Of a stretch of 64,000 nucleotides of DNA, positions 46,332 to 48,992 are shown in pieces. The stretch spans positions 2,720,001-2,784,000 of the forward strand of contig OY762209.1 in the NCBI GenBank assembly GCA_963665295.1, written 5' to 3'. The stretch's first letter is position 1. Each line of letters begins with the position of its first letter. The position numbers and the translations under genes are program-made. This stretch comes from Syntrophorhabdaceae bacterium (GTDB taxonomy: Bacteria; Desulfobacterota; Syntrophorhabdia; Syntrophorhabdales; Syntrophorhabdaceae). The notes beneath the pieces are model-generated. The model had not been told where the DNA came from, did no database searches, and worked only from the letters and a program-made list of their open reading frames with translations.

Positions 46332-48257
46332 ATGATAACAGCTACAGGGCTTACGAAAACATACGGTCTGCAAACCCTTTTCGAAAACGGTTCCTTCATC
46401 GTAGGTCCCGGCGAGCGGGTGGGCCTCGTAGGAAGGAACGGAAGCGGCAAGACGACCCTTTTCCGTCTCATCCTGGGGTTGGAAGAGCCCGACTCGGGAT
46501 TTCTCAACATTCCCCGGAACTATGCCATAGGGTACCTGTCCCAGCATATCTCCTTCACCCGTTCCTCGGTGCTTGAGGAGGCATGTGCGGGCCTCAAGAT
46601 GGACGAGGACGGAACGGACAGGACGTACAAGGCCAAAGAGATACTCCTGGGGCTCGGTTTTTCAGAGAAAGACTTCGGCCGCAGCCCTCTCGAGTTGTCG
46701 GGGGGTTACCAGATCAGGCTCAACCTTGCAGGCCTTCTTATCTCCGAACCCGAGATGCTTCTTCTCGATGAACCCACGAACTACCTCGACATCCTTTCCG
46801 TGCGCTGGCTCGCAAGGTTTCTCACTGCGTGGAAGAGGGAGTTGATTCTCATTACCCATGACCGGGCGTTTATGGACAGCGTTACCACCCATACCATGGC
46901 GATCCACAGGTTTGCCTTCAGGAAGATGGAAGGTTCCACCCATAAGCTCTACCAGCAGATCCTCCAGGAAGAGGAGGTGTATGAACAGACCAGGGTAAAC
47001 GAGGAGAAGAAGAGGAAGGAAATAGAACAGTTTGTGAACAGGTTCCGGGCGCAGGCAACGCGGGCCCGGGCGGTACAATCACGGATCAAGGCCCTTGAGA
47101 AGAAGGAAAGGCTACAGAAGATGACGGAGGAGAAGAGCCTGGATTTCGAGTTCCAATCCGCCCCCTTCCACGGCAAATGGCTCCTGGAAGCGAGGAACCT
47201 TTCTTTTTCCTTTGACCCGGATGGTCGGCCCCTCATCGACGGGCTCAGCTTTTCTATCGGTAGGAAAGACCGGATAGGCGTGGTGGGCAAGAACGGGAAA
47301 GGCAAGACAACGCTGCTCAGCCTCCTAGCGGGCGAACTCAAGCCCTCGTCCGGGTCTATAGTCATCCATGAAAACGTGAAACAGGGTTACTTCGGTCAAA
47401 CCAATATCGACCGCCTCAGTATGTCGCGCACGGTGGAGGAAGAGATAGGGTCCGCCTTCCATGACGGAGGGTACGGCGCGGTCCGCAATATCTGTGGATT
47501 GATGATGTTCGAGGGGGACAAGGCGGAGAAGAAGATCAGCGTTCTTTCGGGAGGCGAGAAGAGCAGGGTGCTCCTCGGCAAGATGCTCGTCAGCCCGGCG
47601 AACCTCCTGTTCCTCGACGAGCCTACCAACCATCTCGATATGGAATCGATCGACTCCCTCGTGGAGGCCATGGAGACGTTCAAGGGTGCGGTTGCCATTG
47701 CCACCCATAGTGAAATGATCTTGAAAGCCGTGGCCACGAAACTGATCGTCTTCGACAGGGGCACGGTCACCCTTTTCGACGGCTCCTATGATGATTTTCT
47801 GGAGCGGGTAGGGTGGGAGAACGAGGACGGAGGCCCTGGCGATCAGGCAACGGACCGGGGCGCCAAGGAAAAAGGACTTGACAGGAAAGAGTTCAAACGG
47901 CTGAAGGCCGATATTGTGGCCCTCCGCTCAAAGGCGCTCAACCCCCTGAAGGAACGCATTGCCCGCCTGGAAAGCAGGATCATGGAACTCGAAAACAAGG
48001 TAGAGGAGGAAAACAGGGCGCTTCTCAAGGCCTCCGAGAATGGCGACGGCAAGAAGATCGTAGCCCTCTCCATGTCGATCCATTCCGGGAAGAAAGAGAT
48101 TGACACTGCCTTTGAAGAACTGGAGATATGTTCCACGGAATATTACGAGAAGGCGCGGGAATTCGAAGACAGGCTGGACGAACTCGACAGGCTCGATAAC
48201 CCCATGGCGCGCCGGTCGGATCTTGCCGACGGAATGACCGGACAGGCTTCCGGTTGA
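46332..48257 (+). CDS. ABC-F family ribosome-associated ATPase
   Basis: Two NBDs (GRNGSGKT/LSGG/LDEPTNYLD; GKNGKGKT/LSGGE/LDEPTNHLD), no TMs, interdomain linker and C-terminal coiled coil. Confidence 0.93.
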   Translation: MITATGLTKTYGLQTLFENGSFIVGPGERVGLVGRNGSGKTTLFRLILGLEEPDSGFLNIPRNYAIGYLSQHISFTRSSVLEEACAGLKMDEDGTDRTYKAKEILLGLGFSEKDFGRSPLELSGGYQIRLNLAGLLISEPEMLLLDEPTNYLDILSVRWLARFLTAWKRELILITHDRAFMDSVTTHTMAIHRFAFRKMEGSTHKLYQQILQEEEVYEQTRVNEEKKRKEIEQFVNRFRAQATRARAVQSRIKALEKKERLQKMTEEKSLDFEFQSAPFHGKWLLEARNLSFSFDPDGRPLIDGLSFSIGRKDRIGVVGKNGKGKTTLLSLLAGELKPSSGSIVIHENVKQGYFGQTNIDRLSMSRTVEEEIGSAFHDGGYGAVRNICGLMMFEGDKAEKKISVLSGGEKSRVLLGKMLVSPANLLFLDEPTNHLDMESIDSLVEAMETFKGAVAIATHSEMILKAVATKLIVFDRGTVTLFDGSYDDFLERVGWENEDGGPGDQATDRGAKEKGLDRKEFKRLKADIVALRSKALNPLKERIARLESRIMELENKVEEENRALLKASENGDGKKIVALSMSIHSGKKEIDTAFEELEICSTEYYEKAREFEDRLDELDRLDNPMARRSDLADGMTGQASG

Positions 48258-48269
48258 ACGTTGTTTAAA

Positions 48270-48506
48270 TCAGGATTTTAGCTCCACAATCTCCCTGATC
48301 TCGGGAATCGCTTCTTTAAGCAGCTTCTCCACCCACAAACTGAGGGCATCGATGCCGCATCAATGAAGCCTGCCATCCACAAGCCTTATCCTCACCACGC
48401 CCAGGGACTCGTCAACGTCCTCGAGCACGGCATAGCCGTCGGCCAGGTCAATGAGCCGCGGCTTCAGGAGATCGATCGTTTCACGGACTCTCTCTGTTAA
48501 GGTCAC
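48270..48506 (-). CDS. Nfu/NifU-C-like protein with in-frame TGA, candidate selenoprotein (78 aa)
   Basis: GGGAG RBS plus GTG; MTLTERVRETIDLLKPRLIDLADGYAVLEDVDESLGVVRIRLVDGRLH(TGA)CGIDALSLWVEKLLKEAIPEIREIVELKS*. Nfu-like pattern on both sides of the TGA (48360-48362). Confidence 0.75.
48330..48348 (-). promoter_or_regulatory. Candidate bacterial SECIS hairpin
   Basis: UGCCCUCA-GUU-UGUGGGUG begins 11 nt after the UGA; the apical loop starts with G at +20. Confidence 0.5.
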
Positions 48507-48637
48507 TTATACTCCCGATGTGAAAATGATATATGCAGATATTACAATACCTTCTTGGCATGGCCTTCACGTCGCAGCCCTGTGTGCGGCTGATCGGGAA
48601 GACCATGTTCGATGTTCTCCGTTTCAGGAGCGGAAGG

Positions 48638-48826
48638 CTATAAGCCGCCGCGGACGGTGTGATAATTCAAAATGCTGATAAACGCCTCGTCATCAAGGAA
48701 CTCATCGTAGCTTAATTCCTTTGTAACCATGCTACTGCCGCAATTGGGGCAGAAATTGTCTGGGACCTCTCCGTCAAGAAAGGCATAGCCACACAAGTCG
48801 CATACAAACTCATCGGGTATTCTCAA
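48638..48826 (-). CDS. Small zinc-ribbon/rubredoxin-like protein
   Basis: CDLC...CPNC; GAGGAGG RBS before TTG. Confidence 0.7.
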   Translation of the reverse strand: MRIPDEFVCDLCGYAFLDGEVPDNFCPNCGSSMVTKELSYDEFLDDEAFISILNYHTVRGGL

Positions 48827-48992
48827 TCGTATTCCTCCTCTTTTCCCTACCCCCGGAAGCCTCCATGTATTTCATATGGATGACGCACCGGGTTCTATGC
48901 TTGCAGAAATCGTTGGGATGGGGACATGATGTTTTGTCTATATCCACGTTTTCTTTGTATTTCAGACAGGTAAGGACTCTCTCATCTGTCAC
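48810..48992 (-). CDS. Small Cys/His-rich hypothetical protein
   Basis: C...CPHP..FCKHR..CVIH; GTG lies 6 nt after an extended -10 (TGG-TAGACT). Confidence 0.65.
   Translation of the reverse strand: MTDERVLTCLKYKENVDIDKTSCPHPNDFCKHRTRCVIHMKYMEASGGREKRRNTIENTR

Follow-up and report, generated by a model that had tools for sequence, protein, structure and literature searches.

Thioredoxin reductase carries out its redox chemistry with a vicinal Cys-Sec pair, which in the animal enzyme forms a C-terminal Gly-Cys-Sec-Gly redox centre. Nfu proteins are Fe-S carriers with a CxxC motif, and the accessible part of PMC6006212 states that the Nfu dimer needs this motif to bind its cluster. Nfu1 is also termed a persulfide reductase in the available text of PMC5741617. 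Here, we describe a gene found in a window of 64,000 nucleotides, the whole stretch of DNA that was analysed, whose product would carry a Sec-Cys pair on an Nfu-like scaffold. The window comes from the genome of a Syntrophorhabdaceae bacterium (G000; one contig, 98% complete). The gene very likely represents a real and apparently undescribed selenoprotein family, in which a known recoding and a known fold are combined with a rebuilt active site.

The gene and its in-frame TGA

The gene occupies 48270..48506 on the minus strand. It opens with a GTG at 48506, continues for 47 sense codons to a TGA (codon 49, 48360..48362), and then runs through a TGC (Cys50, 48357..48359) and 28 more codons to a TGA stop, giving 78 residues if codon 49 is read, very likely as Sec. 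A Shine-Dalgarno-like GGGAG (48512..48516, minus strand) stands 5 nt ahead of the start. Because the table-11 product is 48 aa long, no ORF of at least 60 aa was listed at 48270-48506. The first-pass annotation had described an ORF led by a ribosome-binding site and hidden by the TGA, and the GGGAG, the GTG and the TGA are all in place. It had also followed the Nfu/NifU C-terminal pattern across the TGA, and the Pfam NifU model does span that codon (residues 7-73, E 5.5e-5), with 23.7 bits at a cut-off of 27. The residues around codon 49 are DGRLH-U-CG. Cys50, the vicinal partner of Sec49, is invariant in 31 of 31 distinct homologues, and the D of DGRLH is a substitution peculiar to the window copy, the position being G in 30 of the 31. 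Three contigs (X1, X3 and X4, from two studies) cover codon 49 with zero letter differences, and these may be the source of the window DNA; a further contig, X5, stops short of the codon.

The genome is equipped for Sec insertion, as the first proposal of a selenoprotein had demanded: it encodes selA, selB, two selD genes (one of them with an internal TGA, of the Sec type) and a tRNA-Sec that is its sole tRNA with a TCA anticodon. Among the 39 carriers of the family in the class (see below), 36 have selA and the remaining three have tRNA-Sec. A genetic code with UGA as Trp is contradicted by the presence of RF2 (prfB, over cut-off), by the tRNA list, and by the family's own Trp codon, which is TGG in 31 of 31. 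Moreover, TGA is the terminal stop of the window gene where homologues use TAA or TAG.

The annotation had made its proposal depend on homologues keeping both the TGA and the frame behind it, and this is what was found. A search with an alignment of 30 homologues gave a TGA-bearing match (E 5.5e-22 or better) in 39 of 96 genomes of the class, with 38 whole copies and one (G057) frameshifted upstream of the codon. Also among the 96, the copy in G082 is decayed, and an additional tandem paralogue without Sec is present in each of G021 and G075. The family gene was not found in the three other genomes of the window's genus, and it is patchy among Sec users, since selA is present in 91 of the 96 class genomes and the family gene in 39. 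In a metagenome scan that took in 58 of 64 parts, the best 80 of 88 confirmed loci comprised 78 with TGA, two with TAA (one allele at two loci) and none with a Cys codon. Overall identity with homologues is 36-59%, frame and sequence are conserved past the TGA, and the named records of close homologues are mostly from Syntrophorhabdus, Syntrophorhabdaceae or Syntrophorhabdales. A 23-nt DNA pattern search of genome contigs returned 34 matches, one of which (L101) is an unrelated protein.

In protein records, codon 49 is the C-terminal end in 113 of 120 listed entries (out of 171 matches). The site residue of the other seven, which are protein records only, is Trp in six and Arg in one (P0006). 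Judging from their sequences, the six Trp records appear to come from gene calling with TGA translated as Trp; one of them reads on via Trp where a close homologue stops at TGA, which fits such calling. No Cys-for-Sec form was found among the 64 proteins of up to 200 aa in the 71 full HMM search matches (the seven longer ones were left out), and no Cys orthologue was found in the 96 class genomes, in the best 80 of 88 metagenome loci or in the 120 listed of 171 protein matches.

It was anticipated that Trp, Arg or Gly at this codon in homologues would argue against Sec. Trp and Arg do appear in the seven protein records, whereas the DNA of 78 of the 80 metagenome loci has TGA. The gene could in principle be a nonsense pseudogene, encode a 48-aa peptide or use UGA as Trp, and these seven records, the broken copies in G057, G082, G105 and G108, and the TAA allele seen twice would all agree with this. 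However, conservation of frame and sequence past the TGA, the near-constant choice of TGA at the metagenome loci, TGG as the family's Trp codon, the presence in the window's genome of RF2 and of a single TCA-anticodon tRNA, called as tRNA-Sec, and termination with TGA where homologues have TAA or TAG make a non-selenoprotein hardly credible. We consider this almost certainly a real selenoprotein gene. The broken copies (G057, G082, G105 at L203, G108 and L229/L230) show frameshifts, truncation or a change of TGA to TAA, which suggests repeated loss of the family gene.

The SECIS-like hairpin with a GUU loop noted at first pass was confirmed. It occupies 48320..48358 (minus strand), with an upper stem at 48330-48348 that begins 11 nt past the UGA and an apical GUU at 48338-48340, 19 nt past it. 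The bacterial SECIS model, as given in the accessible part of PMC13188914, has a loop of 3-9 nt, a G in the first two loop positions, a distance of 16-37 nt from the UGA and an MFE of -7.5 or lower, and the window hairpin (MFE -17.3 kcal/mol) satisfies all four constraints. Its energy on its own is modest evidence (z -2.27; 6 of 200 shuffles fold equally well), and the weight comes from conservation. In the constrained fold, an MFE of -7.5 or lower was obtained for 68 of 75 copies with the Sec-Cys order of the window gene and for 21 of 21 copies of a sister lineage with the order Cys-Sec. Among the 75 distinct Sec-Cys proteins, synonymous entropy is 0 at three stem or loop codons (Ala GCC 75/75, Leu CTC 75/75, Ser AGT 50/50) and the next Leu codon is G-ending in 74, compared with 1.3-2.3 bits for 17 further codons of four- or six-fold degeneracy. 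Sec-Cys and Cys-Sec forms share one SECIS core, 22 or 19 nt from the UGA (19 in the window gene), which four of four Sec-less paralogues have lost. A C-G pair has become U-A by two synonymous changes in 5 of 21 Cys-Sec copies, perhaps in a single event. In a 31-row Sec-Cys alignment, pair counts were not above column shuffles (130/500 for percent paired, 43/500 for covariation) because the core is nearly invariant.

Other sites with this core were seen in the same genome, where a loop-core scan run with no shuffle control gave 11 matches. Two genes with formate dehydrogenase alpha subunit-like flanks have the same loop core 19 nt past a TGA, and one of them has the UHxP motif found in the accessible table of PMC13188914. 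Outside the window, an open frame at G000:C1:2352364 (+) contains a TGA and a hairpin core closely like that of the window SECIS, and is possibly an unannotated selenoprotein. At G000:C1:1942146 (+), a TGA falls in a C-x-U motif and is accompanied by the same loop core; from its motif, this gene has the look of a rhodanese-type selenoprotein. Most of the remaining matches have no assignment.

Predicted fold and register of the Sec site

The structure prediction suggested along with the annotation returned an Nfu fold. An AlphaFold2 model from 30 sequences, with Cys in place of Sec, has a pLDDT of 87.6 and of 63 in the motif loop; its six best Foldseek matches are all Nfu domains (probability 0.99-1.00, TM 0.61-0.67 on the query), and there is a profile match to CnfU (2z51) at E 2.7e-8. 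The window protein is predicted to have the Nfu fold, with the Sec-Cys pair in a flexible loop where Nfu bears CxxC.

The Cys-Sec lineage was found in 11 of 81 genomes around G061 (one copy frameshifted) and at 21 metagenome loci. Its motif, GG[RKSTM][LV]C-U-[GA]G, is one residue longer than the window's form, and the Cys-Sec form aligns with Nfu gap-free from the strand through the last helix, so that Sec falls at the position of the second CxxC cysteine. A third lineage, present in 4 of 61 genomes around G188, is also Cys-Sec, with a different hairpin. With the Pfam NifU model, one Cys-Sec relative scores 37.1 bits and one third-lineage relative 22.9, on either side of the score of the window protein. 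The first Cys of CxxC is lost and a Cys adjoins Sec, ahead of it in 21 distinct proteins and behind it in 75. The gap-free relatives thereby back the register assigned from the window alone, with Sec in the place of the second Cys, no first Cys and a new Cys beside Sec. The CXXC for cluster binding was absent in all family members examined, and the DGG stretch of canonical Nfu is replaced by LA[ED]G.

In a tree with the motif masked (70 columns; 41 of 101 family rows after thinning, the third lineage being left out), the Sec family stands apart from 18 canonical Nfu rows with support of 100/100. The Cys-Sec group has support of 73/82, and p-AU is 0.46 for the other group as one clade. From length identity with Nfu, we infer that the Cys-Sec order may be older than Sec-Cys. 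A canonical Nfu with GACGSC is present elsewhere in the window's genome (C1:5279042), and the Sec-Cys protein is a paralogue beside canonical CxxC Nfu, not a replacement for it.

Two further variants were observed. Tandem paralogues (L029/L067 in G021, L163 in G075, L246 and L262) have lost Sec, the vicinal Cys and the SECIS, and have acquired one or two Cys in the helix that comes next; in a tree without Cys-Sec rows, they make up a single clade inside the Sec-Cys group. Some Sec-Cys members (L016, L023, L025, L028, L033 and others) have a C-terminal extension with C-x-C, a possible second metal or redox site.

Gene neighbourhoods and candidate functions

Upstream of the window gene lie genes for a sulfur-inserting homocysteine biosynthesis enzyme, a ThiI-like protein and a protein of metallo-beta-lactamase fold, and two small Cys-rich ORFs, in an order that recurs only in a few genomes of one family. 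One of the ORFs (62 aa, 48638..48826, minus strand) is zinc-ribbon/rubredoxin-like, with weak Pfam matches under cut-off, and adjoins the family gene in G006, G008, G010 and G024; the other (60 aa, 48810..48992, minus strand) belongs to no known family. Both are syntenic neighbours only, with 36-78% identity in several relatives and no family above cut-off in Pfam or NCBIfam. On the other side, a gene with two ABC-ATPase domains (46332-48257, plus strand) runs toward the Nfu-like gene, and 12 bases separate the two stops. No conserved operon was found for the Sec-Cys form, whose neighbours (46 of them scanned) vary from clade to clade, with most neighbourhoods bearing no relation to one another.

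The Cys-Sec gene lies directly behind a gene fusion in 10 of 11 carrier genomes (the 11th at a contig end) and at 18 of 21 metagenome loci (the other three starting near a contig end). In the fusion, an ArsC-like domain is joined to a flavodoxin-like FMN reductase domain that bears a four-Cys motif and that we take to be Isf-like. At L064:2755-3741 and in relatives, the ArsC-like domain has C-X5-R and later C-X3-C, and no NCBIfam model covers the fusion. Further upstream come DUF166 and either sufC-sufB (L064, L073, L203) or oxygen-stress genes (L167, L172). The latter run includes rubrerythrin, a Sec-peroxiredoxin, desulfoferrodoxin (superoxide reductase), a flavin reductase-rubredoxin, a flavodiiron-type protein, DUF166 and a Sec-glutaredoxin, and in L171, L173 and L174 ferritin and peroxidase genes lie behind the Cys-Sec gene. 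Unannotated Sec-glutaredoxin (UxxC) and Sec-peroxiredoxin (TxxU) genes were seen in these oxygen-stress clusters (L167:4792-5034; L172:4773-5030; upstream in L167/L170/L172; L305). The third lineage lies directly behind sufC-sufB in three of four genomes (Pfam-checked for G188 only). Since the Cys-Sec and third-lineage genomes are kin, these context counts are not independent.

Of 20 genomes with the fusion, 10 show no intact Cys-Sec gene (including one contig end, one gap and one truncated copy). In the class of the window the fusion is present in 3 of 96 genomes, unlinked to the family gene; no fusion was found in 36 of the 39 genomes that carry the window's form, nor in the window's own genome. 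SufBD is present in 6 of 39 class carriers compared with 21 of 57 non-carriers, and the window's genome has no SufBD match and four NifU N-terminal-domain matches. Obligate links of the window's form to the Isf/ArsC-like fusion and to SufBD were both rejected on these counts.

The reading we prefer, with a probability of roughly 0.45 for the statement as a whole, is that Sec readthrough would give a 78-residue protein of predicted Nfu fold whose Sec49-Cys50 pair acts as a redox switch, maintaining the reduced state of Fe-S proteins, or of the donors of their sulfur, during oxygen stress. With codon 49 read as Sec, the exposed selenolate would attack oxidised sulfur (a disulfide or persulfide) on a partner docked at the Nfu surface, the neighbouring Cys would resolve the adduct to leave a vicinal selenenylsulfide ring, which would be opened again by a cellular reductant. 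A redox switch is favoured because adjacency is conserved rather than CxxC geometry, because the motif loop is Gly-rich, because a normal Nfu is retained in the genome, and because the informative neighbourhoods, those of the Cys-Sec lineages, hold oxygen-stress and selenoprotein redox genes. That adjacency and not ligand geometry was kept is indicated by the Cys standing after Sec in some proteins (75) and before it in others (21). The loss of CxxC spacing and of DGG, together with the low confidence of the loop, likewise counts toward redox chemistry rather than a canonical carrier. Against a redox switch, these informative neighbourhoods are not those of the window's Sec-Cys form, and two S/Se donors per monomer remain, as a cluster-binding dimer needs.

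Those two donors could instead serve a specialised Fe-S carrier, in which a homodimer would hold a [4Fe-4S] or [2Fe-2S] cluster, coordinated by two selenolates and the two thiolates next to them, and deliver it to client proteins, for instance for repair after exposure to oxygen. The predicted Nfu fold, the position of Sec exactly at the Nfu ligand, the presence of two donors per monomer in all 96 distinct Sec copies, and the location of the third lineage behind sufC-sufB (3/4 genomes) and of L064, L073 and L203 downstream of sufCB point this way, as does the four-Cys cluster-type motif of the gene ahead of the Cys-Sec form. In addition, 4 of 41 short canonical Nfu records terminate directly ahead of the second Cys, as expected of CxxU forms. 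These canonical-looking entries (P0213, P0215, P0221 and P0224) are protein records only, and no CxxU Nfu copy was found among matches at E 1e-7 or better in a sample of 301 genomes from the phylum of G061. However, adjacent ligands to one cluster are rare, the Cys stands on opposite sides of Sec in different lineages, and most carriers of the window's form are without SufBD (6/39 have it). The CXXC that is required according to the accessible part of PMC6006212 is also absent. A cluster carrier, the main rival to the redox switch, is conceivable but doubtful, and it is rather unlikely that an Nfu descendant delivers an Fe-S cluster via selenolate and vicinal thiolate for oxygen-stress repair in strict anaerobes, its partner Cys having switched sides of Sec while the SECIS moved one codon.

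The protein might also be a metal or metalloid chaperone whose vicinal Sec/Cys pair binds soft ions, for instance As(III), Hg(II) or Cu(I), and passes them on. The Cys-Sec gene directly behind the ArsC-like fusion with C-X5-R (10/11 carrier genomes, 18/21 metagenome loci) would agree with this, and so would the CU motifs of SaoL, SaoC, HgcA and MbdU in the accessible parts of PMC13188914 and bioRxiv 2022.07.06.499078. Such a role is improbable given that 36 of 39 carriers of the window's form lack a detectable fusion and that no recurring ars, mer or cop genes were found among the scanned neighbours, where we saw one ArsP-type gene (L203) and one P-type ATPase (L174). It is more improbable still that Sec or Cys holds a persulfide or perselenide for SelD, SufB, tRNA thiolation or homocysteine-forming enzymes. 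This is what the window's upstream same-strand genes, for the sulfur-inserting homocysteine biosynthesis enzyme and the ThiI-like protein, would suggest, but that order occurs in only a few genomes, all of one family, and looks like simple synteny; at most loci the neighbours are different.

Comparison with described families

The family adds a selenoprotein family on a fold without an entry in the 2026 catalogue: no Nfu/NifU row is found in Table 1 (119 prokaryotic selenoprotein families) in the accessible part of PMC13188914. The window protein matched nothing in NCBIfam 20 at E up to 1, and three of four relatives gave weak NfuA/NifU matches there. In a term search, 'Nfu' and 'NifU' were absent from the accessible main texts of PMC12013277, PMC13326102, PMC13745706 and bioRxiv 2022.07.06.499078. 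A literature search that did not extend to the BSepDB family table and most subscription papers found no report of a Sec-containing Nfu. The impression at first pass that this is not a described family agrees with its absence from the accessible catalogue of 119 families and from NCBIfam 20.

Homology pipelines would miss the family because no close Cys orthologue was found and because database entries mostly stop at the UGA (113 of the 120 listed). It provides a natural experiment on the Nfu active site, with CxxC, Cys-Sec and Sec-Cys on one scaffold, plus Sec-less paralogues without SECIS. The size of 78 residues makes two questions directly testable, namely whether Nfu domains can be redox catalysts apart from cluster carriage and whether a selenolate can be a ligand of an Fe-S cluster on a carrier. 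For studies of SelB recognition, the 16-nt SECIS core also offers a clean, strongly constrained case.

A parallel for the motif is animal thioredoxin reductase, in which Cys and Sec are likewise vicinal, Gly-flanked and placed in a flexible segment; in the window family, in contrast, the pair is internal to a small Nfu-fold protein and occurs in either order. Adjacent Cys and Sec are also described, in the accessible part of PMC13188914, for SaoL, SaoC, HgcA, KCU-star, MbdU and the CopZ-type (2Fe-2S)-binding forms 1 and 2, but their domains differ and no NCBIfam model of theirs matches the window protein. The HesB-like selenoprotein (TIGR01911, motif UxGP; same source, accessible part) is likewise named after an Fe-S biogenesis family, but it belongs to another family with another motif and gives no match.

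The Nfu/NifU C-terminal domain (PF01106; PDB 2z51 CnfU, 2m5o human NFU1 C-domain, 1veh and 1xhj) is alike in predicted fold, size, sequence profile and the presence of a chalcogen residue at the second Cys. In contrast to Nfu, the window family has Arg or Lys at the first Cys, Sec at the second and a new adjacent Cys; it has LA[ED]G for DGG with one extra residue, and the window's form is one residue shorter past the motif. It forms a separate clade even with the motif masked and coexists with canonical Nfu. Without the CXXC that marks Nfu carriers, the family is, as far as its sequences tell, an Nfu-derived selenoprotein and not an Nfu carrier.
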